A stretch of 40,620 nt of DNA from Streptosporangiaceae bacterium (GCA_036497405.1 DASXJM010000456.1:1-40620), one strand, 5' to 3'; counted from the first letter of the stretch, positions 9,260-33,021 are shown. Notes: generated from the sequence alone by a model not told the origin. Numbers and translations: made by a program.

Positions 9260-9291
9260 CCGCGCCCCACGCCCGGCCACGCCGAACGGAA

Positions 9292-9321
9292 GCAGGCCCG
9301 CACCGATCGGTGCGGGCCTGC
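9292..9321. terminator. Bidirectional stem-loop between the convergent yceI-like and amt genes
   Basis: gcaggcccgcacc-gatc-ggtgcgggcctgc is a perfect 13-bp GC-rich stem with a 4-nt loop. It lies 33 nt after the yceI-like stop and 71 nt after the amt stop. Confidence 0.7.
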
Positions 9322-9391
9322 ACATGCTCCCGGGTCCCTCCCGGCGCGCCGAGGCGCTGGCGGCCAGGAGGAACCCGGGTGGTCAGCCGGG

Positions 9392-15819: not shown

Positions 15820-15848
15820 TCCCGTGGGTGGCGGCTAGCATCGGGGAT

Positions 15849-16358
15849 ATGGATGCCGCCGCTGACGTGACCGAGCTGCCGGAGATTCCCGGCGACCCGC
15901 TGGCCCTGGAACGCCAGGTGTGCTTCGCCCTGTCCATCGCGGCCCGCAGCGTGCTGGCCATCTACCGGCCGCTGCTTGAGCCGATGGGGCTGACCCACCC
16001 GCAGTACCTGGTCATGCTCGCGCTGTGGGGACGGTCCCCGCTGTCGGTCAAGGAGCTGGGCGAGATGCTCCAGCTCGACGCGCCCACCCTGTCGCCGCTG
16101 CTCAAGCGGCTGGAAGCGGCGGGCCTGCTGACCCGGGCCCGGGACCAGCGCGACGAACGCCAGCTGCGCATCGAACTGACCCAGCAGGGCCACGACCTGC
16201 GCCAGCTGGCGCTGGGGGTGCCACCCGCGGTGGTGGCCCGGATCGGGGTCGAGCTGGGCGAGCTGCAGGACCTGCAGCAGGCGCTGGTCCGGCTGAACGA
16301 GGCCGCTCGCCGGGCCGGGGTGCAGCCGCTCGCGGTCCCGGCCCAGGACAGTGTGTAG
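15849..16358 (+). CDS. MarR family regulator, OhrR-like (conserved N-terminal Cys)
   Basis: It has ...LALERQVCFALSIAARSVLAIYRPLLEPMGLTHPQYLVMLALW...VKELGEMLQLDAPTLSPLLKRLEAAGLLTRARDQRDERQ.... An alternative GTG start lies at 15828. Confidence 0.8.
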   Translation: MDAAADVTELPEIPGDPLALERQVCFALSIAARSVLAIYRPLLEPMGLTHPQYLVMLALWGRSPLSVKELGEMLQLDAPTLSPLLKRLEAAGLLTRARDQRDERQLRIELTQQGHDLRQLALGVPPAVVARIGVELGELQDLQQALVRLNEAARRAGVQPLAVPAQDSV

Positions 16359-16361
16359 GCG

Positions 16362-17798
16362 CTAGCCGAGCCTGCGGTCGAGGTCCAGCAGCGCCTGGGT
16401 GAACACCTCGATCGGCGCCACGGCCACGCCCGCGCCGACCTGGCCGCTGCCGTCGGAGTTGTGCAGGATCCCGGTCGTCACCTTGGGCGTGATCCCGAGC
16501 TCGACGACCTTGCGCACGTCGACCCCGACCGGGGAGCCGCGCTGGCCCCAGGTCGGCAGGATGAACCGGGTCGACCGGCCGACGCAGACCAGGTCCAGCT
16601 GCTCGGACAGCCGGGCCGCGTCGGCCATCGTGCCGCCGACCAGCTGGGCCACGGCCGGGGACCCGGCCGCGCAGGCGCCGCCGAGACCGATCAGCTCCAG
16701 CACCGAGCTGTCCCCGATGTCGGGGGCGGCGTCGTCTTCGCTGCGTCCCGGCTGGTAGAGCGCGTCGCCGACCAGCGGGGACGGCGCGTACTGCCAGGAG
16801 CTGCCCGGCCCGGCCAGCCAGGCCGCGAAGCCAGTGCCGTTGCGGCTCATGCCGGCGACGATCGAGCTGTTCTCGACCTGGCCCGCCCACAGGGTGAGGG
16901 TCCGGGCCGCGGCCATGGCCAGGCTCAGGAACAGCAGGTAGTTGGCGGACAGGAAGTCGGCCACCTCACCCCGGCGCGGGTGTGCGCCCCGCACCAGCGC
17001 GGGCAGCAGGGTCCGCAGCAGCAGGTTGGTCGAGGCCTGGGTCCGCACGTGCACGTCGTCGCCCATCGCCACCGCCTGGGCCGCGAACGACAGCACGTTG
17101 AGCGGGCCGGTCGCGGCCAGCGCGTCGGCCAGGACCGGGCCGGCCGCGTCGCGCAGCAGGATCAGCCGCTCGATGGCGCCGGGACTGTCCTTGCCGAACC
17201 AGGCCACATCGCCCGAGCCCTGGCCCAGCGGCGCGTAGGCCTGGAGGCCGGCCTCGGCCAGTTCCACCACCCAGACCGGGGTCCGCGGGCCCATCGCGGT
17301 CGCCATCGGCACCACCGTCTGATGATGGTTGGCCGAGCCGGTCCGCACCTGCCCGGAGGCCAGCAGCTCATCGGCCTGCCCGGGACCGGCGGCCCAGCCC
17401 TCGGCGCAGACCGCCGCCCGCAGGGAGCGCTGGAGCGGGTCGCGGGCGTCGCGGTATTCGATGGGCGGGCCGCTGTGCAGGATGAGCCGCTCGCCGTCCA
17501 GGGCCGGGATGACCTCGGCGGCGGGGCGGACCGTGACCACCTCCGGCACCCCGCGGTCCAGGCGCCGGTACACCTCGGCGTTGGCCGCGTCGATCACCGC
17601 CGCCCGCGGGCCGGACAGCCGCCGCAGGGCCGCCACCACCTCCGGGTCGCCGCCGCCGGGGATGCGCCAGTCGAGCTGGATGACGGGCCGGTCCTGGTCG
17701 GCGATGGCCTGGGCGAACAGGGGCAGCCCGGCATTCAGCACCGATACCTCGTCCGGCAGCCGCACCGGGTGATCGGTCTCGTGGGCGGCGGCGGTCAT
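16362..17798 (-). CDS. DUF1116 (YlbE/AllG-like) protein
   Basis: 478 aa. Blocks matching E. coli YlbE as I recall it are ...ILHSGPP..., ...MGDDVHVRTQAS..., ...PDIGDSSVLELIGLGG... and ...GITPKVTTGILHNSDGSGQVGAGVAVAP.... An ATGA overlap joins it to the upstream lyase gene. Confidence 0.75.
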   Translation of the reverse strand: MTAAAHETDHPVRLPDEVSVLNAGLPLFAQAIADQDRPVIQLDWRIPGGGDPEVVAALRRLSGPRAAVIDAANAEVYRRLDRGVPEVVTVRPAAEVIPALDGERLILHSGPPIEYRDARDPLQRSLRAAVCAEGWAAGPGQADELLASGQVRTGSANHHQTVVPMATAMGPRTPVWVVELAEAGLQAYAPLGQGSGDVAWFGKDSPGAIERLILLRDAAGPVLADALAATGPLNVLSFAAQAVAMGDDVHVRTQASTNLLLRTLLPALVRGAHPRRGEVADFLSANYLLFLSLAMAAARTLTLWAGQVENSSIVAGMSRNGTGFAAWLAGPGSSWQYAPSPLVGDALYQPGRSEDDAAPDIGDSSVLELIGLGGACAAGSPAVAQLVGGTMADAARLSEQLDLVCVGRSTRFILPTWGQRGSPVGVDVRKVVELGITPKVTTGILHNSDGSGQVGAGVAVAPIEVFTQALLDLDRRLG

Positions 17799-19309
17799 CG
17801 CGATTCTCCTTCGGACAGCCCGGCCAGCAGGGTCCGGGCCAGCTGGGTGAGTTCCTCTTCGGCCGCGCCGATGGTGGCGGCGTCGCGGTGGGCCTGGGTC
17901 AGCAGCCGTTCCCCGTGCTGGCGGGTGCGCTCGGCCATGCCCGCGACCACCTGCGGGGCGGCCCCGCCGTCCAGCACCCGGGTCTCCACGATGCCGCGCG
18001 GGTCGAGCACGGTGACCAGGTCGACGTCGTCGAGGTCGAGCCGGGAGCCGTTGTACTCGGCGGCCGCGTCCTGTAGCCGTTCGACGGTCAGGTCCACGCC
18101 CCGGATGCCGTCCCGGCTGGCCTTACGGACGGCGGCCCCCACGATCTGGTAGGCGGTCCGGTAGTCCACGCCGCACTGGCCCATGATGAACTCGGCCAGG
18201 TCGGTCGACTGGCTGTAGCCCGACTCCAGCGCCTGCCACATGCGGGCCGCGTTGACCTCCAGCGTGCTGATCACTCCCGCGGTCAGCCGGGTCGTACGCA
18301 GGGCCAGGTCGAGCGCGCGCGGGACCTCGCCGTAGGCGTAGATGAGGTTGTCGCTGCGGGCCGAGGGGCTCTTGCTGACGGCCAGGAACCCCGACAGGCG
18401 GCCGATCATGGTGCCGGACGCGCCGCGGATGATGGACAGCGAGTAGGGGTTCCGCTTCTGCGGCATCAGCACGCTGGACCGGCTGTAGCCGTCGGCGATG
18501 GAGACGTAGTCGAATTCGTTGCTGGCCCAGATCTCCAGGTCTTCGGCCAGTTTGCTCTGGGTGGTCAGCAGGCTGGACGCGGCCGACATGGCCGCGATCA
18601 GCCCGTCGATCTGCCACATCGCATCGCGGGTGTGCTCGATGAACCCGTCGAACCCGAGCAGGTTGGCCACCCGCGACCGGTCGTGCAGCAGGCGGCTGCC
18701 GTTGACGCACCCGGCCCCACCCGGGCTGAGGTTGATGCCGTCCAGTTCGCCGCGGAGCCGCTCGCCGTCGCGCAGGACCGGATAGGCGAAGCTGACCAGA
18801 TAATGCCCGAAGGTGGATGGCTGGGCGTGCTGCAGATAGGTCTGGTCCGGCAGCCAGGTGCGCGTGTGCTGCCCGGCCAGCCCGGCGATCTCCATGCCCA
18901 GCCGGGCCGCCGCCGCGATCAGGTCGGTCAGTACCCCGCGCAGGTGCAGGCGCAGCGCGATGCGGACCGCCTCCCGGCGCGGGCGGCCCGCGTGCAGCCA
19001 GCCGGCCGCGTCCCCGATCTGCGTGGTGAAGTAGCGCTCGCGGGAGTTGTACGGCTCACCGAACGACGGGTCGTACGGGAACTCCGCCGCCGGGGTGGCC
19101 GCCGCCTGCAGCAGCACGGTCAGCAGCGCGCGGGTGGCCTCGGGCGGGATGACCTTCCGCTCGTGCAGGTCGATGACGTGGGCCAGGTCGGCCAGGTTGA
19201 GGCCGTCGTGCAGCAGCGGCGCGTCCGCGTTCTCCAGGGTGAAGCCGCTGTCGATGAGTTCCTGGGCCGGCCCGCTGACGGGCGGCCCCAGGCGGGCTTG
19301 GGCGGGCAT
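17795..19309 (-). CDS. Argininosuccinate-lyase-like enzyme (fumarate lyase superfamily)
   Basis: 504 aa from ATG 19309, with an aaggagacc Shine-Dalgarno. Superfamily signature: SSVLMPQKRNP. Also ...TYLQHAQPSTFGHYL.... The upstream part of the 624-aa ORF-track entry is Arg/Pro/Gly-rich and overlaps the PLP gene. Confidence 0.8.
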   Translation of the reverse strand: MPAQARLGPPVSGPAQELIDSGFTLENADAPLLHDGLNLADLAHVIDLHERKVIPPEATRALLTVLLQAAATPAAEFPYDPSFGEPYNSRERYFTTQIGDAAGWLHAGRPRREAVRIALRLHLRGVLTDLIAAAARLGMEIAGLAGQHTRTWLPDQTYLQHAQPSTFGHYLVSFAYPVLRDGERLRGELDGINLSPGGAGCVNGSRLLHDRSRVANLLGFDGFIEHTRDAMWQIDGLIAAMSAASSLLTTQSKLAEDLEIWASNEFDYVSIADGYSRSSVLMPQKRNPYSLSIIRGASGTMIGRLSGFLAVSKSPSARSDNLIYAYGEVPRALDLALRTTRLTAGVISTLEVNAARMWQALESGYSQSTDLAEFIMGQCGVDYRTAYQIVGAAVRKASRDGIRGVDLTVERLQDAAAEYNGSRLDLDDVDLVTVLDPRGIVETRVLDGGAAPQVVAGMAERTRQHGERLLTQAHRDAATIGAAEEELTQLARTLLAGLSEGESR

Positions 19310-20367
19310 CAGGTCTCCTTCGCGGCGGCTTCGTCGACGGCGTCGAGCAGTCCACCGGTGTGCCAGAAAATCGTGGTCAGGCCGGGATCGGCGGCGGTCC
19401 CGCCGAGGATCGCGGGCAGCGCGGCCAGGGCCTTGGCCGTGTACACCGGATCGAGCACCAGCCCCGCCGTCCGCAGCGCCAGCCGCGCCGCCGCCCGCCC
19501 CTGGGCCGAGGCGAGCCCGTGCCCGGGGCCGCGGCCGTCGGTCAGCTCGACGTCGTCCGGGCCCGGCGCCGGGGTCCCCAGCTGCCGGGCACAGCCGGTG
19601 GCCATGGCCAGCACCCGCTGGCGGGTCTCGGCGGGAGGCCGCGACACCGACACGCCCGCCAGCCGCCACGGCCGCCCGAGCGCGACGGTCCCCGAGACCA
19701 GCCCGGCCAGCGTGCCCCCGGACCCGGTGGCCGTCACCACCGTCACCCGCCCGCCAGGCCAGCCCGCCTCACTAATCCCACCGGCCCCACCAGCCCCATC
19801 AGTTAGCTGGCGCGCCAACTCGGCGGCGGCCCAGTGGAAACCAGCCGCGGACCGGGCGGTGGCGCCGCCGCGCGGGATCGGGAACGGGCGCTCGCCCGCG
19901 GCTTCGAGCCGGGCCGCGGCCTGGGCGATCCCGGCGTCGACCGACTCGCGGTCCGGATCGCCGGTGAACACGACCTCGGCCCCCCAGTGCCGGGCCAAGG
20001 CCAGGTTGGGATGCTCCTGCTCCGGCGCGGTCCCGGCGTAGACCAGCAGCGCGGGCAGACCTGCGTGGGCCGCGGCCGCCACCGCCGCGGCCGCGAAGTT
20101 GGACCCGGTGGCGCCGCCGGTGACGATGACCGTGGCCGCCGTGGCCGCCGCGTCGGCCAGCAGCACCTCCAGCGGCCGGGCCTTGTTGCCGGCCACCGCG
20201 AACCCGGTCAGGTCGTCCCGCTTGACCAGCAGCGGGCCCGCCAGGCCCAGCGCCGCGGCCAGCCGCGGGGCCGGGGTCAGCGGGGTGGGCAGCACCGCCA
20301 GCGGCCAGCGCTCTGGCCCACCCGGCGCACCGGCCGTACCCGGCCCCGCTTCCGTGCTCGACGTCAC
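19309..20367 (-). CDS. PLP-dependent enzyme of the ACC deaminase / D-cysteine desulfhydrase / L-cysteate sulfo-lyase family
   Basis: 352 aa from GTG 20367, which forms a GTGA overlap with the upstream gene. It has ...LLVKRDDLTGFAVAGNKARPLEVLL... (the GNK lysine motif), a Gly-rich ...TATGSGGTLAGL... loop, and ...LDPVYTAKALAAL.... Confidence 0.7.
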   Translation of the reverse strand: MTSSTEAGPGTAGAPGGPERWPLAVLPTPLTPAPRLAAALGLAGPLLVKRDDLTGFAVAGNKARPLEVLLADAAATAATVIVTGGATGSNFAAAAVAAAAHAGLPALLVYAGTAPEQEHPNLALARHWGAEVVFTGDPDRESVDAGIAQAAARLEAAGERPFPIPRGGATARSAAGFHWAAAELARQLTDGAGGAGGISEAGWPGGRVTVVTATGSGGTLAGLVSGTVALGRPWRLAGVSVSRPPAETRQRVLAMATGCARQLGTPAPGPDDVELTDGRGPGHGLASAQGRAAARLALRTAGLVLDPVYTAKALAALPAILGGTAADPGLTTIFWHTGGLLDAVDEAAAKET

Positions 20368-21566
20368 GGCCACTGGTCCGGCTCCTGCTCCCGGGCCCGC
20401 CGGGCCCGGCTGATGACCAGGTCGACGATCTGCGGGGCGGCCCCCGGGTCGGACGGGTTGCTGGTCGAGCCGAGGTAGGTGGCCACGTTGGCTGCCATCT
20501 TCTCCTCGTTCACCTCGAGTCCTTCGGCCAGCGCGATGGCGATCTGCAGGGCCTGGCCGGTCAGCAGGCAGACCTCGGGCAGCGCGGGCCACTCGGCCTT
20601 CCAGGTCCGGCCGTCCCGCTCGTGCTCACCGACCAGCCCTTCCATCAGCACGCCCGCGTTGACCCGGACCATCCGGGCCAGCGTGGCCAGGTGCTCGCTG
20701 CCTTCGGGGTTCCGTTTGTGACCCATGGTGATGGAGCCGATGACCGTGCTGGCCCGGGGCTCGCCCAGCTCTCCGATCTCCGGCCGCTGCAGCTCGTAGA
20801 CCTCGGTGCCGAACCGGGCCAGCGTGCCCGCGATCATGGCCAGCACGCCGCCGAACTCCGCGATCCGGTCGCGGGTGGCCAGCCAGGAGATGACCGGGTC
20901 GGCCAGGTCCAGGTCGGCGCAGAACGAGGCCCGGATGTCCAGTCCGGCCGGGCCGAACGCGGCCAGCGTGCCGATGCCGCCGCCGAGCTGGCCGACCAGC
21001 CAGCGCGGCGCCCCCTCGCGCAGCCGGTCCAGGTGCCGGCGCACCTCGTCGGCCCAGGTGGCCGCCTTCCAGCCGAACGTGGTGGGTGCTCCCGGCTGGC
21101 CGTGGGTCCGGCCGCAGATGAGCGTGTCCCGGTACCGGGCGGCCAGGCTGAGCAGCAGGTCCTCCAGCATGCGCAGGTCCCGCCAGCACGCGCCGCCCAC
21201 TGTCCGCAGGGCCAGGCTGGTCCAGGTGTCGGTGACGTCCTGGACGGTGGTGTCCCGGTACACGTATTCGGCCGCGGCCGGCGACAGCACCCGGCGCAGC
21301 TCCAGGATCAGCCCCTGGGTCGAGTGCCCGGTGATCCGGGCCCCCTCCGCGACCCGGTCCAGGTCCAGCCGGCCGACGGTGGCCTCGGCGGTGATCGCCG
21401 CGGCCGCCTCGGCCGGGATGAAGCCGTGGGCGGCCTGGGCCCGGGCCAGCGCGGCCAGCACGGTGAGCCAGCCCTGCACCCGGCCTTCCTCGTTGAACAC
21501 CTCCCGCAGTTCCGCGGTGCCCCACAGGTGGGCGTAGGACAGCGAATCCGTGATGCGTGCGTTCAC
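20364..21566 (-). CDS. Adenylosuccinate-lyase / 3-carboxymuconate-cycloisomerase-like enzyme (fumarate lyase superfamily, deviant signature)
   Basis: 400 aa. It has ...LWGTAELREVF..., ...GRTHGQPGAPTTFGWK... and the signature GSITMGHKRNP, where the canonical form is GSSxMPxKxNP. A GTGA overlap joins it to the upstream gene. Confidence 0.75.
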   Translation of the reverse strand: MNARITDSLSYAHLWGTAELREVFNEEGRVQGWLTVLAALARAQAAHGFIPAEAAAAITAEATVGRLDLDRVAEGARITGHSTQGLILELRRVLSPAAAEYVYRDTTVQDVTDTWTSLALRTVGGACWRDLRMLEDLLLSLAARYRDTLICGRTHGQPGAPTTFGWKAATWADEVRRHLDRLREGAPRWLVGQLGGGIGTLAAFGPAGLDIRASFCADLDLADPVISWLATRDRIAEFGGVLAMIAGTLARFGTEVYELQRPEIGELGEPRASTVIGSITMGHKRNPEGSEHLATLARMVRVNAGVLMEGLVGEHERDGRTWKAEWPALPEVCLLTGQALQIAIALAEGLEVNEEKMAANVATYLGSTSNPSDPGAAPQIVDLVISRARRAREQEPDQWP

Positions 21567-22477
21567 CGGGTCCCGCCCGCCAGGTCAGCGGCGGCCCGCA
21601 GCCCGTCGGCGACGAGGTCGAAGGAGGCGCCCCAGGGCACGACCACGGTGTCGCCGCGGGTCTCGATGTGGGTTTCCAGCAGGCAGCACTTGGTCAGCCG
21701 GACCTCACCGGCCGGGACCGGGGAATCCGCCGCCAGCCGGGCCGGGCACATGTCGATCTGCCGCAGCGACGCGGCCTGGTCCGGGTAGAAGTGGTCGTGG
21801 ATGGCCCGGGAGCGGGCGCAGCCGATCAGCACCCAGCCGGGATCGGGCGGCGGGACCTCGTCCAGGTAGGAGATGGTGGCCCCCGGGACCCGCGCCCCGC
21901 CACCCCGGCAGGGCAGCAGGTAGTGGCGGGCCGGCTCGGCCTGGGCCAGTTCCTGCAGGTCGATGACTTCGGCCCGGGTCAGCACCGCGGGCAGGCTCTC
22001 GGCCGTGCCGAGCAGCCGGTCGACCTGGTCGCAGAACTTGGCCGGCCAGGGCGGGGCCACGTCCAGCACGTGCACCACGGCCGGGTCGGAGTCGAGCACG
22101 AAGTTGACGTGCTCGTACCGGCCCTTGACCACCACGCACCGGTGACCAGGGAACTCGGCCGCGACCCGGGCCAGCTGGCTGGGCACCGCGGTGTCGATGT
22201 CCGGCCTGGTCACCATGATCGTTTCGGCCGGGCCAGCCAGCCGGGTCACCGTGGAAACCGGGCGGAACAGGGAGTCGTCACGGTCGCCGGACCCCACCGG
22301 AGCGACCTTCGATATATCCACCTCGGCCAGCGCCACCTGGTCGCCCGAGCAGGCGATCACGAACCTCGTCCGCCGGTAGACGTCGTGGCCGGCGAACCAG
22401 TCCGCCAGCGATTCGGGGGACAGGTCGCCGCCGATGCTGGTGAAGGCCACGGTCCGGTACTGGCCGGGGATCAGCAT
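21563..22477 (-). CDS. Conserved-looking hypothetical protein (304 aa), family not recognised
   Basis: ATG 22477 overlaps the ComA-like stop (TGATG). The ORF is strongly GC3-rich and sits inside a translationally coupled operon. The 692-aa ORF-track entry extends it artefactually through the ComA-like gene in another frame. Confidence 0.6.
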   Translation of the reverse strand: MLIPGQYRTVAFTSIGGDLSPESLADWFAGHDVYRRTRFVIACSGDQVALAEVDISKVAPVGSGDRDDSLFRPVSTVTRLAGPAETIMVTRPDIDTAVPSQLARVAAEFPGHRCVVVKGRYEHVNFVLDSDPAVVHVLDVAPPWPAKFCDQVDRLLGTAESLPAVLTRAEVIDLQELAQAEPARHYLLPCRGGGARVPGATISYLDEVPPPDPGWVLIGCARSRAIHDHFYPDQAASLRQIDMCPARLAADSPVPAGEVRLTKCCLLETHIETRGDTVVVPWGASFDLVADGLRAAADLAGGTR

Positions 22478-23340
22478 CACGCCGCTCCTCCGGGCCGGCC
22501 CGGACCGTCCAGGTTCGTATCGACCGTGTCCGCGCGCAGCCCCAGGCGAAGCGTCTCCACCGACAGGGCCGCGCCCGGGCGGACGTTGCCGAGGTTCACG
22601 TTGGCCCCGTAGCGGCGGATCAGCCAGGTCTGCTGGGCCCGCTGCGGCGCCTCGAACAGCACCCGGTCGGCGCCGATCGCCGCCACCACCGCCGCCACCA
22701 CGTCGGCCCGGACCGAGCCGTCCGGCTCGTACAGGCCGACGGTTCCGCTTTCGCGTCCCTCGGTGACGACGTAATCGGCGCCGGCCTCCAGGTCGGCCTC
22801 GGCGTCGGCCGCCCACTGCCCGGCCAGGACGGAGGCGTCGGCGTCCTTGCGGCCGATCTCGGCCAGCACCCCGAACCGCTGGGCGGCCACGCCGATCAGG
22901 CCGGACTTCTCGGCCCGGGTCAGCTCGACGGTGCCGCAGGACACCTCCACGCACGGGAAGCCGACCGCCATCGCCCAGTCCAGGAACGGGCTGACCGCGC
23001 CCTGGGCCCACGCGATCTCCAGCAGGGTGCCGCCGGTGCAGGCGCGGACCCCGTGCTGCTCCAGCAGGTCGAGCTTCTCCTCCAGGTTCTGATCGACGTA
23101 GGCCGTGCCCCAGCCGAACTTCCAGATGTCGATCAGCGGCCCGGCCACGGCCAGGTGCTGGCGGGCCTCGGGGACCGACATCCCGTCGTCCAGCACGTGC
23201 AGCAGCCCGGAGGCCCTGGGTTTCACGGTCCGGGCCGGCAGGGCCAGGAAGCCGGGCGTGCGCAGCCCCGGCCCCGGTTCCGGCCCCAGCCGGACGCTGG
23301 GCGGCACGGTGATACATTGCGCCGGTGCCTGCTCCGTCAT
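22477..23340 (-). CDS. Phosphosulfolactate synthase (ComA) family protein
   Basis: It has ...LPARTVKPRASGLLHVLDDG...IDIWKFGWGTAYV...FPCVEVSCGTVEL...AEIGRKD...ADYVVTEGRESG...LIRRYGANVNLGNV.... ATG 23340 is preferred. Alternative starts lie at 23352 and at GTG 23307. Confidence 0.75.
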   Translation of the reverse strand: MTEQAPAQCITVPPSVRLGPEPGPGLRTPGFLALPARTVKPRASGLLHVLDDGMSVPEARQHLAVAGPLIDIWKFGWGTAYVDQNLEEKLDLLEQHGVRACTGGTLLEIAWAQGAVSPFLDWAMAVGFPCVEVSCGTVELTRAEKSGLIGVAAQRFGVLAEIGRKDADASVLAGQWAADAEADLEAGADYVVTEGRESGTVGLYEPDGSVRADVVAAVVAAIGADRVLFEAPQRAQQTWLIRRYGANVNLGNVRPGAALSVETLRLGLRADTVDTNLDGPGRPGGAA

Positions 23341-24299
23341 CGGATCTCCCACCTGCGGAACTGGATGGCCTGGCCCGGCGGATCCGGGATCTGCCCGGCG
23401 TCCGCTCCAAGAGCGCCATCGGAACGGTCGCCGACGTGCTCGGCGGGGGCGACTGGTGGGCGGGACCGGGCGACGACGGCGCGGTGGTCGAAGACGACGG
23501 GCGCATGCTGGTCGTCGGCGGCGAGGCCATGCTTCCGGCCTTCGTGGCCGGTGACCCGTACGGAGCCGGGATCGGCGCGATGGTGGCCAACGTCAACGAC
23601 CTGGCCGCCATGGGCGCCCGGCCGCTGGCCATCGTGGACACGCTGGTGGGGTCGGCTCCGCTGTGCGCGGAGATTCTCCGCGGCCTGCGATGGGCGGGGG
23701 AGCGCTACGACGTCCCGGTCGTCGGCGGCCACCTCACCGAGACCGACGGCCCGCCCGCGTTCTCCGCGTTCGGCCTGGGCCGGGCCAACGCCGTGCTGTC
23801 GGCCACCCACACCCGGCCCGGCCAGGTGCTCATCGTCGCCGCCTGCGTCAACGGCGCGATGCGGGATGACTTCCTGTTCTTCCGCTCGTTCGAGCAGCAG
23901 GGCTTCCAGCTGGCCGCCGACGTCCGGCTGCTGGCCGAGATCGCCGAGTCCGGCGCGGCCGTGGCGGCCAAGGACGTCAGCATGGCCGGGATGATCGGCT
24001 CGCTGGCCATGCTGCTGGAACCGAACCGGCTCGGCGTGACCGTCGACCTGGCCGCGGTCCCCACCCCGGCCGGGGTGCCGCTGGGCGACTGGCTGTGCTG
24101 CTTCCCGTCCTACGTCTTCGTCCTCACCGGGCCCGCCGACCGGGCCGACGACTGCGTGGCGATGTTCGCCGGGCACGGCATCACCGCCGCGGTCGCCGGT
24201 GAGCTCGACGATTCCGGCGCCGTCCGCCTGGCCGCCGGCGGCGCCACCGCCACCGTCTTCGACCTGCGCACCGAAGGCATCACCCGCCTGTCCCGCTGA
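23325..24299 (+). CDS. AIR-synthase-related (PurM-superfamily) protein, sll0787-like
   Basis: It has ...GPGDDGAVVEDDGRMLVVGGEAM...AMVANVNDLAAMGARPLAIVDTLVG...VVGGHLTE.... GTG 23325 is the only canonical start ahead of the conserved N-terminal block. It is inverted relative to the GNAT and radical SAM genes. Confidence 0.7.
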   Translation: MPAPSSDLPPAELDGLARRIRDLPGVRSKSAIGTVADVLGGGDWWAGPGDDGAVVEDDGRMLVVGGEAMLPAFVAGDPYGAGIGAMVANVNDLAAMGARPLAIVDTLVGSAPLCAEILRGLRWAGERYDVPVVGGHLTETDGPPAFSAFGLGRANAVLSATHTRPGQVLIVAACVNGAMRDDFLFFRSFEQQGFQLAADVRLLAEIAESGAAVAAKDVSMAGMIGSLAMLLEPNRLGVTVDLAAVPTPAGVPLGDWLCCFPSYVFVLTGPADRADDCVAMFAGHGITAAVAGELDDSGAVRLAAGGATATVFDLRTEGITRLSR

Positions 24300-24306
24300 C
24301 CCGCGC

Positions 24307-24825
24307 CTAGGCCCGCGCATGCGCCCCACTTCCGTCCGCGGGCCTGCTCAGCCCGATTGACATGCGCTGGTGGGGGAGGCCCTGGTACAGCTCGGGCTCG
24401 CCGGTCAGGCTCCAGCCCAGGTACCGGAAGAAGACCACGTTGGCCAGCTGGACGTGAGCGATCATCCGGCGGCCGCCGAGCCACCCGGCGGTCCGGACCG
24501 CGTGCCGGACCAGCGGGCCGCCGACGCGGTGCCGCCGGAACTCCGGCAGCACGGCCAGCCGGTCGCCCTGCCACAGCACCCCGCCGTCCGGTTCGCGCCG
24601 CAGCGGATAGAGGCGGACCGTGCCCGCGGCGGTGCCGTCGACGTAGCCGACGACGTGCACGGTGGCCGCCTCGTCGTCGTGGGCGTCCCGGTCGTCCGCG
24701 GGGAAGATGGCCTGCTCGGTGACGAACACCTGGCGCCGGACGGCCAGGTGCCGGTCCAGTTCCGCGGCCGCCTGGACGTTCCGGCATTCGACCGGGCTGA
24801 CGACGGTCGTGGTCATCGCGGTCAC
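24307..24825 (-). CDS. GNAT N-acetyltransferase, MSMEG_0567/Sll0786-like
   Basis: 172 aa. It has ...AVRRQVFVTEQAIF...GTVRLYP...GDRLAVLPEFRRHRVGGPLVRHAV.... A GTGA overlap joins it to the radical SAM gene. Confidence 0.75.
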   Translation of the reverse strand: MTAMTTTVVSPVECRNVQAAAELDRHLAVRRQVFVTEQAIFPADDRDAHDDEAATVHVVGYVDGTAAGTVRLYPLRREPDGGVLWQGDRLAVLPEFRRHRVGGPLVRHAVRTAGWLGGRRMIAHVQLANVVFFRYLGWSLTGEPELYQGLPHQRMSIGLSRPADGSGAHARA

Positions 24826-25985
24826 GCCACCTGCAGCGGCAGCATGCGCCGGCCGTCGGCGGGCAGCACCGGCGAACCGGGCCCGGGCCCGGGACCGGAC
24901 TCGTGCTCGAGGACGGCCATGCCCGAGCAGGCCTGGCAGCGGGCACAGCCGGCCATCACCCCGGCCGAGGTCATCCCGTGGCGGCGCAGGTGCGGGACCA
25001 CCTGGCGGTAGATGCTCTCGACGTAGTCCCGCGGCGGCGGCGTGGAATCGCCGAGGATGGTGCCCGGTACCGGCCGCAGCGGCACGACGAATGGGTAGAC
25101 GCCGATGTCGATCGCGCGCTTGCAGCTCTCGACCGTGACCGCCGGGTCTTCACCCATGCCGAGGATCACGTAGGTCGACACCTGCCCGGACCCGAACACC
25201 TGCACCGCCCGCTCCCAGGCCGCGAAGTAGGCCTCGATACCCCACCGGGCCTTGCCCGGCGCGACCCGGGCCAGGACCTGCGGGTCGAAGGTCTCGACGT
25301 GGATGCCGACCGAGTCGACGCCCAGGTCACGGACCTGGCTGAGGACGTCCAGGTTCGAGGGCGGCTCGAACTGCACCTGGACCGGGAGCCCGGCCGCGTC
25401 CTTCACCGCCTTCGCGCACCGGGCCACGTACAGGGCGCCGCGATCGGGGGTGGCGGTGCTGCCGGTGGTGAGGGTGGCGTCGACCGCGCCGTCCAGTTCC
25501 TTGGCCGCCACCGCGACCTCGGCCAGCATCTCCGGCGTCTTCTTGGCGATCGTGCGCCCGCCCGCCAGCGAGAGCCCGATGCCGCAGAACTGGCACTGGT
25601 CGGCGTTTCCCCAGTACGCGCAGGTCTGCAGGACCGTGCTGGCCAGCGAGTCCAGGTGCATCAGCGCGATCTTCCAGTACTCGAGGCCGTCCGCCGTCTT
25701 CATGTTGTAGAAGTTCGGCTGCGGGGCCGGGCGAGCCTCGGCCAGCCGCACGGTGCCCTGGTAGATGCCGAACCCCTCGTCATCCGCACGCAACGCGTAC
25801 GGCGACTCCGCCACGTAGGACGCGCTGGTCGGGACGGTCGTGGGCACCCCGTCGATCCACAGCATCCCCGCGTCGGACGGGCCGGCTCCACCCTGGCGCG
25901 TCTCCAGCTCGGTCTCGACCCGCAGGCCGACCGACTGGAGCTCAGCGATGAGATCAGCAGTGGCTGACCTGGGCATCTGCGACAT
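24822..25985 (-). CDS. Radical SAM protein, MSMEG_0568-like
   Basis: 387 aa. The only N-terminal Cys triad is CAYWGNADQCQFC. It has a TIM-like core ...ATLTTGSTA...VGIHVETFD...YVILGMGE... and a C-terminal CARCQAC. ATG 25985 is preceded by ggagga. Confidence 0.75.
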   Translation of the reverse strand: MSQMPRSATADLIAELQSVGLRVETELETRQGGAGPSDAGMLWIDGVPTTVPTSASYVAESPYALRADDEGFGIYQGTVRLAEARPAPQPNFYNMKTADGLEYWKIALMHLDSLASTVLQTCAYWGNADQCQFCGIGLSLAGGRTIAKKTPEMLAEVAVAAKELDGAVDATLTTGSTATPDRGALYVARCAKAVKDAAGLPVQVQFEPPSNLDVLSQVRDLGVDSVGIHVETFDPQVLARVAPGKARWGIEAYFAAWERAVQVFGSGQVSTYVILGMGEDPAVTVESCKRAIDIGVYPFVVPLRPVPGTILGDSTPPPRDYVESIYRQVVPHLRRHGMTSAGVMAGCARCQACSGMAVLEHESGPGPGPGSPVLPADGRRMLPLQVA

Positions 25986-26065
25986 GGGTCACGTTCCTCC
26001 GTTCCCGCGTCCAGCGACCGATCGGGGGGTTCGGCCCCGGCTGTCCGCGCAGCAAACGCTGTGGC

Positions 26066-26081
26066 GTCCACTATAGGAAAC
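26066..26081. promoter_or_regulatory. 16-nt GTCCA-CTATAG-GAAAC site upstream of the radical SAM operon
   Basis: It lies 81-96 nt upstream of the radical SAM start. Thirteen of its bases (ctataggaaacga, 26071-26083) are identical to 31620-31632. Confidence 0.45.
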
Positions 26082-26135
26082 GAAGTGCCGATGGCAACAG
26101 GTGTCCCAGAGATGTCAACGCGCCAAATGCCAGGG

Positions 26136-26966
26136 TCAGTGATCGAGGTCGGCGCGGAGCGCGGCCACCTGTTCCTCGCGGGCCGCGGCCGAATCGAATT
26201 CCCAGTACTCGGTGGAGTTATCGGTGGTCAGCTCGCCGCTGGCCGGGTCGACCGAGACCCGCTGGACGGCGTGCACAACCCCGGTGAAACTCTCGTCCGG
26301 CCGGGTTTCCACCAGCACGCCGACGCCGCTGACAGGATCGACTTCCAATCTCCGATAGGCAATGAACGGATCCCCGGCCGGATCGCCCACCTCATCGAGC
26401 ACCAGCCAGCCGCCCTCCACCCCACCGTCGCCGGCGCCCTGACCATTCCGCGCCACCTGGGCGTCCCGCGCGGCCCGCCCCATCGCCCGCCGTCGCCGCC
26501 GCGCCGCCAGCCAGCCGATCACCTCGCCGTGCCGGATCGCGAACGCGGCCGCGGTCAGCCCCTCCCGCTCGGCCGCGGTCAGGGGCAGCGCCGCGCCATC
26601 CACCGCGGCATCACCGGTCCCACCTGCGCGCGCGTCCCACGCGCCCACCAGCGCCGCCGCGGCCGCCTGCGCCCCGGCGTCATGCTCCTCATCACCATCC
26701 AGATCCAGCTCCCCACCACCCCCAGCCCCGCCGGCCTCCCCGCGCAGCCGATTCAGCCACGCCGCCACCAGCCGCGACGCGGCCGCGTACCGCTCCGGCG
26801 CCTGAGCCATCCCCGCGAACGCACTCCCCGACGCCGCCACCCACTGCGGCCCCAGCTGCCGCAACCGCGCCAGCGCCGGCCCCGCCTCGCCCCCGGCCGC
26901 CCCGCCCGCGACCGGCCCGCCCTCGCCCGCCTCGACCCCGGCCGGAGGTGGCGTTTCTGTCCCCAT
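26136..26966 (-). CDS. Hypothetical Gly/Ala-rich protein (276 aa)
   Basis: GC3-rich ORF lying between the radical SAM and carbamate kinase operons. The C-terminal ~100 aa is non-repetitive (...FIAYRRLEVDPVSGVGVLVETRPDESFTGVVHAVQRV...EYWEFDS...). I recognise no family. Confidence 0.5.
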   Translation of the reverse strand: MGTETPPPAGVEAGEGGPVAGGAAGGEAGPALARLRQLGPQWVAASGSAFAGMAQAPERYAAASRLVAAWLNRLRGEAGGAGGGGELDLDGDEEHDAGAQAAAAALVGAWDARAGGTGDAAVDGAALPLTAAEREGLTAAAFAIRHGEVIGWLAARRRRRAMGRAARDAQVARNGQGAGDGGVEGGWLVLDEVGDPAGDPFIAYRRLEVDPVSGVGVLVETRPDESFTGVVHAVQRVSVDPASGELTTDNSTEYWEFDSAAAREEQVAALRADLDH

Positions 26967-27009
26967 CGGTTGCCCCCTTCGGCTCGATTATTTACTATCC
27001 GATACGTAC

Positions 27010-27025
27010 GTTTGACATCGGAAAC
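27010..27025. promoter_or_regulatory. 16-nt GTTTG-ACATCG-GAAAC site in the divergent region upstream of carbamate kinase
   Basis: It has the same 5-6-5 geometry and the same GGAAAC end as the sites at 26066 and 31615. It is adjacent to the acgtacgt palindrome (27004-27011). Confidence 0.3.
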
Positions 27026-27090
27026 ACTTCTAGGGCGTTCGGACGAGAACATCTCAGGCGTTCGGCCGGCTGGTGGAAAGGTTCGGTGAA

Positions 27091-28062
27091 GTGGCTAGCA
27101 AGGTGGCGGTAGTGGCGGTCGGCGGCAACGCGCTGACCCGCGAGGACCAGCTTGGCACGGCCCAGCAGATCCGGGATAACGCGGCCGGGATCGCGACCGG
27201 GATCTGCGCCCTGGCCGACGCCGGGTGGCGGGTGGTGGTGGTCCACGGCAACGGCCCCCAGGTCGGCAACCTGGTCATCCAGCAGGAAACCGGCGTGACC
27301 ATGGTCCCGGCTCAGCCGCTGAGCGCGCTCAACGCGATGACCGAAGGCCAGCTCGGCTCGGTCCTGACCCTCGCCATCGACTCGATCCGAGGTCCGGGCA
27401 GCGCGGTCGCGCTGGTCAGCCACATGACCGTCAGCCCCGACGACCCGGCGTTCCAGCATCCGACCAAACCGGTCGGGCCGTTCTTCGACGCCGCCCACGC
27501 CGAGCAGATGGGACGCGAACGCGGCTGGCTGATGGCCGAAGACTCCGGCCGCGGCTACCGCCGGGTGGTGGCCTCGCCGGTCCCGCAGGATCTGCTCGAA
27601 CTGCCCACCCTGCGCGCCCTGGTCAGCAGCGGCCTGATCGTGCTGGCCGCGGGCGGCGGCGGGGTGCCGGTGGCCCGCACGGCCACGGGCACGTACACCG
27701 GGGTGGACGCGGTCATCGACAAGGACCTGGCCGCCGCGCGGGTGGCGGCCGGCATCGGGGCCCAGGCGCTGCTGCTGGTCACCGCGGTGGACGAGGTCTA
27801 CGTCGACTTCGGCACGCCCCGGGCCCGGCCGGTCCGGGTCATGGACACCGCGCTGGCCGATCGGTACCTGGCGCAGGGCCAGTTCCCGCCGGGCAGCATG
27901 GGACCGAAGATCCAGGCCGCGGTGTCGTTCGTCCGCTGGTCCGGGGCCAGCGCCGTGGTCACCTCGGCCGCCAGCATGGCCGCCGCGCTGGCGCCGGACG
28001 CGACCACCGGCACCCGGATCGTCCCCGAGATCGTGCCCGAGACCGTCATGAGCCGAGCATGA
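27091..28062 (+). CDS. arcC: Carbamate kinase
   Basis: It has ...KVAVVAVGGNAL...VVVHGNGPQVGNL...GYRRVVASPVP...VLAAGGGGVP...IDKDLAAA.... GTG 27091 is preferred (ggaaagg upstream). An alternative GTG lies at 27073. Confidence 0.85.
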   Translation: MASKVAVVAVGGNALTREDQLGTAQQIRDNAAGIATGICALADAGWRVVVVHGNGPQVGNLVIQQETGVTMVPAQPLSALNAMTEGQLGSVLTLAIDSIRGPGSAVALVSHMTVSPDDPAFQHPTKPVGPFFDAAHAEQMGRERGWLMAEDSGRGYRRVVASPVPQDLLELPTLRALVSSGLIVLAAGGGGVPVARTATGTYTGVDAVIDKDLAAARVAAGIGAQALLLVTAVDEVYVDFGTPRARPVRVMDTALADRYLAQGQFPPGSMGPKIQAAVSFVRWSGASAVVTSAASMAAALAPDATTGTRIVPEIVPETVMSRA

Positions 28063-29735
28063 GCGCCGACCCGCCGGGCGCCCCCAGCGCCGCCCCGCCG
28101 GCCACCCCCACCGCGACCGCCCCCAGCGCCGACCGGCCGGCCCACCACGCGGCCCGGACGATCTCCGATACCTACGCCGACTCCATGGTCCTGCTGGTGG
28201 CGACCTCGGTGATGTCCGGCCAGCCGGGCATCGGGTGGGCCGGGGCGGTGATGGCCACCCCGGCCGCGCTGGGTGACCTGGCCGAGCAGGGCTTCGCGCC
28301 CGCCGACCTGGCCGAGGCCCACGCCAACGACCTGGTCCTGGCGGTGCACGCGGCCGACGAGGGCCAGGCCGAGGCGGCCCTGGCCGCCGGGACGGATTCG
28401 ATCTTCAGCGCGACCCGCCCCGGCGGCAACGGCGGCAACGGCGGCAACGGCACGGAAGGCGGCCCCCGGCACGACGCCCCGCGCACCATCGAAGCCGCGG
28501 CCGAACTCGCCCCCCGCGCCAACGTGGCCATCGTCTCCGTGCCCGGCCCCTACGCCGCCCTCGAGGCCCATCACGCGCTCACGGCCGGCCTGCACGTCCT
28601 GCTGTTCAGCGACAACGTGCCGCTGGCCGAGGAGATCGAGCTCAAGCAGCGCGCCACCGAACTCGGCCTGCTGGTCATGGGTCCGGGCGCGGGCACCGCG
28701 GTGCTGGCCGGCACCGGGCTCGGCTTCGCCAACGTCCTGCGCCGCGGGCCGGTGGGCGTGGTCGCGGCCGCGGGCACCGGGGCCCAGGAGGTCTCGGCGC
28801 TGCTGGACCGCTGGGGCGTGGGCGTGTCCCAGGTGATCGGCGTGGGCGGGCGCGACCTGTCCGCCGAAGTCGGGGGCCGGATGGCCGTCGCCGCCGTGCG
28901 GGCTCTCGACGCCGACCCCGATACCCAGGCCATCCTGATCGTGTCCAAGCCGCCGGACCCGGCCGTGGCCAAGCTGGTGCTCGAACAGTGCGCCGGCACC
29001 CCGGCCGTCGCCGTCTTCCTCGGCGTCACCGACCTCACCCAGCCCGCCGGGACCCAGCCCGCCGGAACCCAGCCCCCCCAAAGCCAGCTCTCCCGCACGC
29101 TGGAGGCGGGCGCGATCGCCGCCGCCCGCCTGACCGGCGGAACCCCCCCGAATCCCGCCCACCACCTGGCCGACCACGCGGCTCGGGCCGCGGCCCGCCT
29201 GCCCGAGCAGCGCCGCACGATCCGCGGGTTCTACTCCGGCGGAACACTCTGCTACGAGGCCCAGCTGATCATCTCCGGCCTGCTCGGCCCGGTGTACTCC
29301 AACGAGCCGCTGGTCCACGAGAACACCGTGCCCGCGCCGCCCGGCAGTCACGTGCTGCTCGACCTCGGCGCCGAGGAGTACACCGTCGGCCGGCCGCATC
29401 CCATGATCGACCCGCAGAGCCGGATCGAGATCCTGCGCGCCCAGGCCCGCGAACCCGATGTGGCCGCGGTCCTGCTCGACGTGGTCCTGGGCCACGGATC
29501 GCACGCCGACCCGGCCAGGGAACTCGCTCCGGTGCTGACCGAGATCATGGCCGACGGCGGTCCGCAGGTGGTCGCCTACGTGCTCGGCTCCGGCGGCGAT
29601 TCCCAGGGCTACCAGGACCAGCGGGCCACCCTGGAGGCGGCCGGCTGCCTGGTCACCGAGACCGCGGCCCGGGCCGCCTACCTGGCCGCGGCCATCGCCG
29701 CCCGCAAGCCCGAGCTGGCCGAGCGGCGGGACTGA
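28059..29735 (+). CDS. fdrA: FdrA (AllF-like) family protein, succinyl-CoA-synthetase-alpha-like fold
   Basis: 558 aa from ATG 28059, which forms an ATGA overlap with arcC. It has ...ANVAIVSVPGPYAALEAHHALTAGLHVLLFSDNVPLAEE...LLVMGPGAGTAVL...VGVVAAAGTGAQEV...VIGVGGRDLS.... The 836-aa ORF-track entry is an artefactual N-terminal extension. Confidence 0.8.
   Translation: MSADPPGAPSAAPPATPTATAPSADRPAHHAARTISDTYADSMVLLVATSVMSGQPGIGWAGAVMATPAALGDLAEQGFAPADLAEAHANDLVLAVHAADEGQAEAALAAGTDSIFSATRPGGNGGNGGNGTEGGPRHDAPRTIEAAAELAPRANVAIVSVPGPYAALEAHHALTAGLHVLLFSDNVPLAEEIELKQRATELGLLVMGPGAGTAVLAGTGLGFANVLRRGPVGVVAAAGTGAQEVSALLDRWGVGVSQVIGVGGRDLSAEVGGRMAVAAVRALDADPDTQAILIVSKPPDPAVAKLVLEQCAGTPAVAVFLGVTDLTQPAGTQPAGTQPPQSQLSRTLEAGAIAAARLTGGTPPNPAHHLADHAARAAARLPEQRRTIRGFYSGGTLCYEAQLIISGLLGPVYSNEPLVHENTVPAPPGSHVLLDLGAEEYTVGRPHPMIDPQSRIEILRAQAREPDVAAVLLDVVLGHGSHADPARELAPVLTEIMADGGPQVVAYVLGSGGDSQGYQDQRATLEAAGCLVTETAARAAYLAAAIAARKPELAERRD
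28422..28448. repeat. 3 x 9-bp tandem repeat (ggcggcaac) inside fdrA
   Basis: Encodes GGNGGNGGN in a linker. Confidence 0.85.
29037..29075. repeat. 2.6 x 15-bp tandem repeat (acccagcccgccggg) inside fdrA
   Basis: Encodes TQPAGTQPAGTQP in a linker. Confidence 0.85.
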
Positions 29736-29737
29736 AC

Positions 29738-30931: not shown

Positions 30932-30946
30932 GCCATGATGCCGACC

Positions 30947-31519: not shown

Positions 31520-31594
31520 CTAGGCCACCAGCAGGGTCGTGGAGCGGGAGTTTCGCGCAGCTTGAGACGCAGGTTGACGTGCATGCCCACATCA

Positions 31595-31630
31595 ATTAAT
31601 GATAGGAAAATAATGTTGCCTATAGGAAAC
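31595..31630. promoter_or_regulatory. Two adjacent GGAAA(A/C)-ending sites, including the near-palindrome GTTGCCTATAGGAAAC, between the XRE-cupin and flavoprotein genes
   Basis: The first site is attaa-tgatag-gaaaa (31595-31610). The second is gttgc-ctatag-gaaac (31615-31630), which fits the palindrome GTTNCCTATAGGNAAC. ataggaaa is repeated 20 bp apart. A TAATGT -10-like hexamer lies at 31611-31616. Confidence 0.45.
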
Positions 31631-33017: not shown

Positions 33018-33021
33018 TCCG

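Follow-up and report, generated by a model that had tools for sequence, protein, structure and literature searches.

The 40,620-nucleotide stretch of Streptosporangiaceae bacterium DNA analysed here (DASXJM010000456.1; in its full length, the window) carries on its minus strand, between positions 16362 and 23340, an operon of six genes, g1 to g6. The first five are predicted to be xcbB-xcbA-xcbD-xcbE-xcbC, the genes of the bacterial pathway to coenzyme M (CoM, 2-mercaptoethanesulfonate), and the sixth is related to allG. This operon belongs, as one arm, to a conserved ~19-kb supercluster (16362-35099). We think it likely that the whole is best explained as an xcb CoM operon extended by allG and forming an arm of a supercluster of the Nit1C/gpr type, within which the CoM would be used.

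How bacteria make CoM was established as recently as 2018-2022, and the only known purpose of the pathway is to support the degradation of alkenes and epoxides. The five-gene pathway itself is already known (PMC9457059). The supercluster context, the joining of allG to the xcb operon and the separate XcbA clade described below were not found in the published literature that we searched, which also gave no link of CoM or phosphosulfolactate synthase to Nit1C, DUF1116 or carbamate kinase. What emerges is a distinct monophyletic xcb lineage, chromosomal and widespread in soil Actinomycetota, that in the loci searched never lies beside a gene for epoxyalkane:CoM transferase and is tied instead to a nitrilase-less Nit1C/gpr-type cluster and to an AllG/FdrA/carbamate-kinase module.

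The operon and its predicted coenzyme M pathway

The genes of the operon, in the order of their transcription, are:

22477-23340, minus strand: g1, predicted xcbB, ComA-type phosphosulfolactate synthase (PF02679, 262 bits over the full profile)
21563-22477, minus strand: g2, predicted xcbA (Pfam DUF7714, 261 bits)
20364-21566, minus strand: g3, predicted xcbD, adenylosuccinate-lyase-like (Lyase_1; best NCBIfam model XcbD, 518 bits)
19309-20367, minus strand: g4, predicted xcbE, pyridoxal phosphate (PLP) enzyme (PALP; best NCBIfam model XcbE, 254 bits)
17795-19309, minus strand: g5, predicted xcbC, argininosuccinate-lyase-like (Lyase_1 + ASL_C2; best NCBIfam model XcbC, 431 bits)
16362-17798, minus strand: g6, allG-like (DUF1116; PF06545 AllG, 195 bits), overlapping the xcbC stop codon (ATGA)

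The CoM pathway is known from Xanthobacter autotrophicus Py2, where five steps were published in 2018 and 2022 and the reactions of XcbA to XcbE have been characterised (PMC9457059). By homology with the Xanthobacter enzymes, XcbB would add sulfite to phosphoenolpyruvate to form phosphosulfolactate, XcbC would eliminate phosphate from this product to give sulfoacrylate, and XcbD would add the thiol of cysteine to sulfoacrylate, yielding 3-sulfopropionylcysteine. The PLP enzyme XcbE would then cleave and decarboxylate 3-sulfopropionylcysteine to sulfoethanethioaldehyde, which the [2Fe-2S] reductase XcbA would convert into CoM. A first-pass annotation of this DNA had recognised most of these protein families and had taken their combination for one found in no described pathway; it is that of the published CoM pathway.

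Assignment of each gene was based on profile scores, on motifs and on comparison with two reference loci, the Py2 plasmid and a plasmid of Nocardioides sp. JS614, a documented CoM-dependent degrader of ethene and vinyl chloride. The product of g1 can be aligned from end to end with two phosphosulfolactate synthases of known structure, 1U83 and 1QWG, reaches 168 bits with the former, which is from Bacillus subtilis, with the conserved motifs intact, and is 38% identical to XcbB of Py2 and 49% to that of JS614. It is a genuine ComA-type phosphosulfolactate synthase, and the operon would therefore carry out C3-sulfonate chemistry, as the first-pass annotation had proposed. The g2 product, previously listed as an orphan, scores 263 bits against a cutoff of 150 on the NCBIfam XcbA family (NF052538), and its cysteines C190, C220, C244, C264 and C265 are invariant in 14 homologues including that of JS614. 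This family is small: at 50% identity it makes up 363 clusters in a set of 1.84 billion representative proteins.

Both lyases score best with Xcb models. For g3 (45% identical to XcbD of Py2), the XcbD model gives 518 bits (cutoff 600), whereas the model of the adenylosuccinate lyase subfamily gives 358 and those of PcaB 272-279. Its signature loop, GSITMGHKRNP, is one residue off the family consensus GSITMPHKRNP, and a loop of the form GSITM(P/H/G)HK(R/V)NP is found in XcbD of Py2 and in all 14 other aligned XcbD sequences. The loop, judged from this alignment, is a hallmark of XcbD and not a one-off deviation; as the first-pass annotation suggested, it marks a changed reaction. XcbD is 400 amino acids long in the window, in Microbispora (locus L006 of our set) and in Nocardioides daejeonensis (L007), its C-terminus being ~50 residues shorter than in the other aligned sequences, all of which have these residues (443-462 amino acids); a full-length relative in locus L009 reaches 596 bits on the same model. 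For g5 (38% identical to XcbC of Py2), XcbC gives 431 bits (cutoff 575) versus 263 for argH, and the motifs TYLQxAQP and S(S/A)xxMPQKRNP are common to g5 and XcbC of Py2. Argininosuccinate lyases have THLQRAQP in place of the first of these motifs.

The g4 product (44% identical to XcbE of Py2) was correctly placed in the D-cysteine desulfhydrase/CuyA family by the first-pass annotation. Its best model is XcbE (254 bits, cutoff 450), followed by CuyA (182), D-cysteine desulfhydrase (134) and, at only 116 bits, 1-aminocyclopropane-1-carboxylate deaminase, and the PLP-binding lysine K62 is invariant in 51 out of 51 homologues. Several of these scores lie under the NCBIfam cutoffs, which is no argument against membership because XcbC and XcbE of JS614 are also below them (378 and 315 bits, respectively); the window's XcbC scores above its JS614 counterpart, its XcbE below. 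Taken together, the Xcb proteins of the window are 38-45% identical to those of Py2 (B, C, D and E) and 39-52% to those of JS614, and the JS614 proteins stand at a similar distance from Py2 (36-44%).

The coding evidence for the operon is consistent throughout. Six gap-free open reading frames (ORFs) fill positions 16362-23340 of the minus strand with the ends first reported for them, and all five stop/start overlaps were confirmed in place, reading TGATG, GTGA, GTGA, TGATG and ATGA on the coding strand from g1 to g6. Overall G+C content is ~72% across the whole window, and G+C at third codon positions (GC3) is 0.92-0.96 in each of g1 to g6 as compared with 0.49-0.64 at second positions (GC2). 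Since this pattern is the coding signature of a ~72% GC genome, all six are genuine protein-coding genes. The g1 ATG is preceded by a GGGAG Shine-Dalgarno sequence; the start of g4 is ambiguous, with in-frame GTG codons at 20373, 20367 and 20295. The first-pass annotation had deduced stoichiometric co-expression from the overlaps. Overlaps of 1 or 4 nucleotides also occur in 6 of the 17 other same-strand neighbouring pairs in the window and are therefore ordinary here, so that they support an operon with coupled translation and leave stoichiometric expression unproven. Scanning the operon for consensus promoters and terminators gave no match, which is uninformative at 72% GC. The composition of the operon is conserved elsewhere: ~70 other genomes keep the order of g1 to g6, with g6 next to g5, all of Actinomycetota, and this makes the operon far more than a chance arrangement. 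Public runs matching window DNA came only from soil and mine metagenome DNA, with no RNA run among those examined, and the nearest public relatives revealed by the XcbA-like protein search are Streptosporangiaceae metagenome-assembled genomes (MAGs).

Comparison with the Py2 cluster (xcbABCDE, pXAUT01) shows the same five families as in the window, with the motifs GSITMxHKRNP and TYLQxAQP and the XcbA cysteines (CC, C, C, C). The gene order differs, being A-B-C-D-E in Py2 and B-A-D-E-C in the window. The Py2 cluster is plasmid-borne and lies beside genes for alkene monooxygenase, epoxyalkane:CoM transferase, 2-KPCC and dehydrogenases, whereas the window operon has an added allG and Nit1C-like neighbours, and a CoM-consuming enzyme of known type is absent. 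In the pXAUT01 record itself (CP000782, our locus L028), xcbA is unannotated: it lies upstream of Xaut_4872 at ~8900-9800 and reads through only with a frameshift, tblastn giving two pieces.

A supercluster of the Nit1C/gpr type

Beyond the xcbB end of the operon, the window carries the other genes of the supercluster, listed here with the regulator gene that adjoins g6 on its other side:

15828-16358, plus strand: OhrR-like MarR regulator (Pfam MarR; OhrR 140 bits, cutoff 200), convergent with g6
23436-24299, plus strand: AIR-synthase-like protein, best match the sll0787/NitF type (Pfam AIRS + AIRS_C), divergent from xcbB
24307-24825, minus strand: GNAT acyltransferase of MSMEG_0567/Sll0786/NitE type (TIGR04045, 106 bits, cutoff 68), kept in supercluster loci
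24822-25985, minus strand: radical SAM protein of MSMEG_0568/NitD type (TIGR04043, 393 bits, cutoff 304)
26066-26081, no strand: palindromic operator-like site GTCCACTATAGGAAAC, 5′ of the radical SAM operon
26136-26966, minus strand: family-less ORF of 276 amino acids, rich in Ala, Gly and Arg (GC3 0.85), upstream of the radical SAM gene
27073-28062, plus strand: carbamate kinase (Pfam AA_kinase; NF009007 282 bits, cutoff 266; arcC 303 bits)
28059-29735, plus strand: FdrA/AllF-like protein with a succinyl-CoA-synthetase-alpha fold (Pfam CoA_binding + Ligase_CoA; FdrA 395 bits, cutoff 433)
29738-30931, plus strand: GT4 glycosyltransferase of the MSMEG_0565 family (TIGR04047, 340 bits, cutoff 260)
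30947-31519, minus strand: helix-turn-helix (HTH, XRE type)-cupin regulator, PuuR-like (Pfam HTH_3 + Cupin_2; PuuR 59 bits)
31615-31630, no strand: palindromic operator-like site GTTGCCTATAGGAAAC, between the HTH-cupin and flavoprotein genes
31632-33017, plus strand: CoA-disulfide-reductase-like (CoADR-like) flavoprotein (Pfam Pyr_redox_2 + Pyr_redox_dim)
33022-33279, plus strand: small basic protein of 85 amino acids, kept 3′ of the flavoprotein gene in supercluster loci
33325-33816, plus strand: protein of 163 amino acids of the MSMEG_0572/Sll0783 (NitB) family (TIGR04044, 192 bits, cutoff 110)
33816-34649, plus strand: Amidohydro_2 metal hydrolase (PF04909, 72 bits), at the position of the Nit1C nitrilase
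34725-35099, plus strand: OsmC/Ohr-type peroxidase (Pfam OsmC, 65 bits), kept in supercluster loci

The extent of conservation was determined by a search with the XcbA-like protein, taking one genome per species, which gave 27 loci onto which all window proteins were mapped; a second search with g6 raised the number of carriers to ~70 Actinomycetota genomes, in which the gene set and its order are kept at 42-95% identity. Wherever the flanking DNA of an actinobacterial locus is long enough, the allG-like gene comes directly after xcbB-A-D-E-C. Found together with them are the AIR-synthase-like gene (divergent from xcbB) and the genes for the GNAT, radical SAM, carbamate kinase, FdrA-like and GT4 proteins, the pyridine-nucleotide-disulfide oxidoreductase, and the 85-residue, 163-residue and OsmC-type proteins; the genes for the HTH-cupin regulator and the Amidohydro_2 hydrolase are frequent companions. 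Carriers belong to Streptosporangiales, Nocardioidaceae, Propionibacteriaceae, Geodermatophilales, Frankiales, Kineosporiaceae, Jiangellaceae and Nanopelagicales, and include cultured Microbispora, Nonomuraea, Sphaerimonospora, Sphaerisporangium, Nocardioides, Geodermatophilus and Blastococcus.

The non-xcb genes tie the supercluster to a cluster type known since 2005, Nit1C, which groups seven genes around a nitrilase (PMC1199592) and is required for growth on cyanide in pseudomonads, its biological function being obscure (PMC7815647). The Mycobacterium smegmatis counterpart, MSMEG_0565-0572 (gpr), responds to nitrogen starvation with a more than 500-fold, GlnR-mediated induction and confers resistance to peroxide (PMC6039565). 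Four families of Nit1C (Synechocystis sll0783-0787; Pseudomonas nitB-H) and gpr, namely the radical SAM, GNAT, GT4 and Sll0783 families, are present in the window above their cutoffs, and the AIR-synthase-like protein has the sll0787 type as its best model, at a score under the cutoff (TIGR04049, 236 bits, cutoff 321). In contrast to Nit1C and gpr, the window lacks the nitrilase of the sll0784 family: the called genes gave no CN_hydrolase match, the cluster leaves no gene-sized gap, and the gene that follows the Sll0783-like gene encodes the Amidohydro_2 hydrolase instead. A CoADR-like flavoprotein likewise stands in place of the COG2072-type flavoprotein (MSMEG_0569), whose model is not in the best 25 of 48 matches of the only flavoprotein of the cluster. 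The xcb genes, the allG/fdrA/carbamate kinase genes, and the OsmC and Amidohydro_2 genes are additions relative to Nit1C and gpr.

The last gene of the operon, g6, whose product also matches the solved DUF1116 protein 3CLQ (210 bits), is by its profile matches an AllG-type subunit of an FdrA/AllG-type enzyme and stands outside the CoM pathway. The first-pass annotation had confined itself to the operon and missed the predicted functional tie of g6 to genes beyond 16362-23340. The FdrA-like protein and the carbamate kinase, encoded 9-12 kb away, are its likely partners. The FdrA-like protein covers positions 9-497 of the 555 of the FdrA profile, and residues 7-63 of g6 weakly match profile positions 500-554 and residues 421-475 of the solved FdrA; a partnership is suggested because the N-terminus of g6 carries the segment that the FdrA-like protein lacks. 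In E. coli FdrA, the ~55 C-terminal residues weakly resemble the N-terminus of g6 (~60 codons), a domain having apparently moved between the two presumed partners.

To our knowledge, the only characterised FdrA/AllG-type enzyme is E. coli AllFGH, which interconverts an N-carbamoyl compound plus phosphate and carbamoyl phosphate. This enzyme turns oxalurate and phosphate into oxamate and carbamoyl phosphate, from which the carbamate kinase AllK produces ATP, CO2 and ammonia (PMC11326118). The AllG, FdrA-like and carbamate kinase families are common to the window and to the E. coli allFGH-allK cluster (fdrA-ylbE-ylbF-ybcF). Unlike in E. coli, allG lies 9-12 kb from the fdrA and carbamate kinase genes and on the opposite strand. 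AllH (PF11392) had no match in the window either by tblastn or with a hidden Markov model (HMM) built from 12 AllH sequences, and allantoinase, allantoate amidohydrolase and ureidoglycolate dehydrogenase were not found among the window genes scanned. Because neither AllH nor allantoin genes were detected in the window, g6 should not be named oxamate carbamoyltransferase; only the type of chemistry can be carried over from the E. coli enzyme. AllH is present in six other loci (L009, L013, L014, L021, L026 and L072) and in all of the xcb-less variants described next.

Relatives of g6 fall into three sets. Those with at least 54% identity are always located directly 3′ of xcbC (loci with enough flanking DNA). 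Those at 40-43%, from Thermoleophilia and other Actinomycetota MAGs (L084-L086, L095, L100, L101, L103 and L107), are part of a Nit1C-like cluster without xcb, ordered carbamate kinase, Sll0783-like, Amidohydro_2, radical SAM, GNAT, AIR-synthase-like, AllG, AllH, in which allG lies immediately beside the AIR-synthase-like gene, the two being divergent, and AllH comes after allG; the nitrilase is absent and no FdrA-like gene is found within 10 kb. Those at only 33-37% lie in classical fdrA-allG-carbamate kinase clusters, from Spirochaetes, Acholeplasmataceae and Firmicutes (Bacillus, Clostridiaceae). The CoADR-like flavoprotein and the OsmC, 85-residue, GT4 and FdrA-like proteins are confined to the xcb-containing version within the available flanks. 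As the AIR-synthase-like gene and allG are adjacent in the xcb-less clusters, xcb must have been inserted between these two genes of an existing cluster, and allG became the last gene of the xcb operon. An insert between the GNAT and AIR-synthase-like genes of L107 was considered as an xcb replacement and rejected: it encodes an unrelated Calx-beta/cadherin surface protein and is uninformative.

Possible uses of coenzyme M

Every experimentally known use of CoM in bacteria is in epoxide metabolism (PMC9457059; PMC8727900), and in both Py2 and JS614 the xcb genes lie beside those for epoxyalkane:CoM transferase and alkene monooxygenase. We found the supercluster to depart from this association. 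A neighbour-joining tree of 97 XcbA proteins has three clades: one from Ktedonobacteria/Chloroflexia, one of JS614 and loci linked to the transferase gene etnE, and one of the supercluster type, which is monophyletic and includes the window. A tblastn search with EtnE of the window and of 107 xcb/allG loci (1.8 Mb) matched only in Ktedonobacteria/Chloroflexia loci. The transferase is thus physically linked to two of the XcbA clades and found in no supercluster locus or in the window. The etnE-linked clusters (JS614 pNOCA01, Mycolicibacterium chubuense NBB4 and soil Actinomycetota MAGs) resemble the window in the order B-A-D-E-C, in sequence (39-52% identity) and in a nearby CoADR-like flavoprotein. 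They differ in forming a separate XcbA clade, in being always linked to the transferase, and in having no allG, FdrA, carbamate kinase or Nit1C-type genes.

These findings suggest that CoM probably serves the nitrogen-starvation/redox system of the supercluster, its exact role being one that we infer. CoM would be consumed or used within the supercluster as a thiol cofactor, a carrier or a building block, and the single-cysteine CoADR-like flavoprotein, a plausible CoM-disulfide or mixed-disulfide reductase, would keep it reduced. This protein has CoA-disulfide reductase as its best NCBIfam model (234 bits, under the cutoff), its only active-site cysteine, Cys52 in an SPCG motif, is invariant in 44 of 44 homologues, and it is 33% identical to the flavoprotein encoded beside comA in JS614. 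The part played by the system would be in scavenging nitrogen, in defence against peroxide or in both, not in epoxide metabolism. Peroxide defence is suggested by the OsmC/OhrR pair together with the gpr phenotype; the catalytic cysteines of OsmC are conserved in 52/52 and 51/52 homologues, and the OhrR-like gene adjoins g6 in L001, L002 and L004 and is present in L007. Release of ammonia from a carbamoyl compound is suggested by the AllG/FdrA/carbamate-kinase module and by the nitrogen-starvation control of the homologous clusters.

The roles of CoM recognised so far are methanogenesis and alkane activation in archaea and epoxide carboxylation in bacteria. A third role, in which CoM would be the dedicated thiol of a Nit1C/gpr-derived nitrogen-starvation/peroxide-defence system of soil Actinomycetota, is a tentative idea that we put forward as possible rather than likely. 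It could take two specific forms. CoM might be the reductant of the OsmC/Ohr-type peroxidase, or it might carry a carbamoyl or cyano group; in the latter case FdrA/AllG would interconvert S-carbamoyl-CoM and carbamoyl phosphate, from which carbamate kinase would produce ammonia and ATP, and the CoM/FdrA/AllG module would fill the place of the nitrilase in classical Nit1C clusters. If CoM is indeed used there, the biology of the smallest organic cofactor would be enlarged, and a traceable sulfonated thiol would offer a chemical handle on Nit1C/gpr, whose function has been open since 2005 although it has been linked to the assimilation of cyanide, to nitrogen starvation and to resistance against peroxide. 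The cultured carriers make the question directly testable.

Several observations weigh against use of CoM within the supercluster. The identity of CoM as the product would follow from homology to the Xanthobacter enzymes, and an altered specificity is possible given the score of XcbE (254 bits as compared with 315 in JS614) and the loss of ~50 residues from XcbD. AllH, a subunit that the E. coli enzyme needs for activity, was not detected in the window, although other supercluster loci have it. The transferase searches covered the loci, and a transferase elsewhere in the carrier genomes is possible. Finally, the function of Nit1C/gpr is itself obscure, and the role of CoM is read from gene neighbourhood.

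One alternative, which we hold to be unlikely, is that an intermediate (sulfoacrylate, 3-sulfopropionylcysteine or the thioaldehyde) is diverted before free CoM is formed, the GNAT, GT4, radical SAM and AIR-synthase-like enzymes building it up into a larger sulfonated metabolite and the whole region being a biosynthetic gene cluster. XcbE and the truncated XcbD are, as such a diversion might lead one to expect, the most divergent members of the pathway, and the GT4 and GNAT proteins recall the mycothiol and bacillithiol pathways, MshA and BshA being among the weaker matches of the GT4 protein. Yet all five Xcb genes, including that for the five-cysteine XcbA, are kept in every supercluster locus, and a shortened pathway is unlikely because it would have no need to retain the terminal reductase XcbA. 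Moreover, the GNAT, radical SAM, AIR-synthase-like and Sll0783-like genes are common without xcb (see also PMC1199592), which argues that their chemistry is independent of the sulfonate.

We consider it quite improbable that the CoM of the supercluster has its classical use, supplying an epoxyalkane:CoM transferase pathway encoded elsewhere in the genome, with the Nit1C-like and allG neighbourhood functionally meaningless. All experimental precedent favours this explanation, the tblastn search with EtnE covered the collected loci and not whole genomes, and EtnE-type transferases are very common in soil Actinomycetota, Streptosporangiaceae MAGs included. A search with an alignment of three transferases gave more than 352 relatives, of which the best 80 were examined; these are 77-94% identical to EtnE of JS614 and mostly from soil Actinomycetota, and about half of their loci (L112-L191, e.g. 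L135-L185) have xcbB-A-D immediately 3′. Judged from this, CoM-dependent epoxide metabolism seems to be far wider in soil than one would expect from the small number of alkene degraders in culture. On the other hand, none of the ~70 supercluster assemblies is among these best 80 of more than 352 transferase holders, and the supercluster XcbA proteins form a clade of their own, beside none of whose loci lies the transferase that accompanies xcb both in the two remaining clades and in the known users. The xcb-allG junction and its neighbourhood are also kept across Actinomycetota orders down to 42% identity.

The model of the first-pass annotation, in which C3-sulfonate chemistry is combined with two aspartate-dependent nitrogen transfers releasing fumarate, can be set aside as extremely improbable: both lyases do belong to the Lyase_1 (aspartase/fumarase) superfamily, but the XcbC and XcbD models beat the ArgH and adenylosuccinate-lyase models by 168 and 160 bits, the XcbC and XcbD motifs are present in g5 and g3, the reactions established for the orthologues are phosphate elimination and cysteine addition (PMC9457059), and the cognate ligases sought nearby are absent among the window genes scanned and are not needed by XcbC/XcbD chemistry.

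Regulatory sites and other genes of the window

The two operator-like sites of 16 bp are of the GTTTCC-TATA-GGAAAC type. With up to 3 mismatches, GTTTCCTATAGGAAAC has two matches in the window (26066-26081 and 31615-31630), with 0 expected. Both positions are kept in L001-L004, and the site at 26066-26081 also in L006, L007 and L010. The PuuR-like HTH-cupin regulator, whose gene lies beside the flavoprotein gene in many supercluster loci, probably has the palindrome as its operator. A scan of the window for GlnR boxes (GTnAC-n6-GAAAC) gave only matches with 1 mismatch (10840, 12220, 15379 and 31615) and no convincing site; the one at 31615 is part of the palindrome at 31615-31630.

The remaining supercluster genes vary in their conservation. 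The radical SAM protein is 54-93% identical in all related loci, those without xcb included, and all supercluster loci have the AIR-synthase-like gene beside xcbB. Its product reaches 167 bits on the model of methanogenesis marker 2, a protein from the marker set for methanogens, which are the other users of CoM; this may reflect only the general relatedness of the two families. That it could be a self-carbamoylated HypE-like protein was rejected, as it has no C-terminal cysteine. Some of the supercluster loci, and every xcb-less variant, have the Amidohydro_2 gene. Profile scans found no family for the 85-residue protein. The ORF at 26136-26966 has no Pfam or NCBIfam match and has homologues in L001, L003, L004 and L007 (Streptosporangiaceae MAGs and Nocardioides daejeonensis); it was considered as a hidden AllH and rejected, with an hhalign probability of 0.1% and an AllH HMM search that was empty in the window.

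Just past the cluster, an ORF of 271 amino acids at 35345-36160 combines nitrite/sulfite reductase 4Fe-4S and ferredoxin-like half domains and is not conserved in related loci. At the other end of the window, positions 882-6319 encode a flavin monooxygenase-like protein, a second OsmC protein, an alpha/beta hydrolase, a PLP enzyme of Cys/Met metabolism and a CoA-binding protein. An S8 peptidase gene adjoins that of a large TPR-CHAT protein at 36145-40179.

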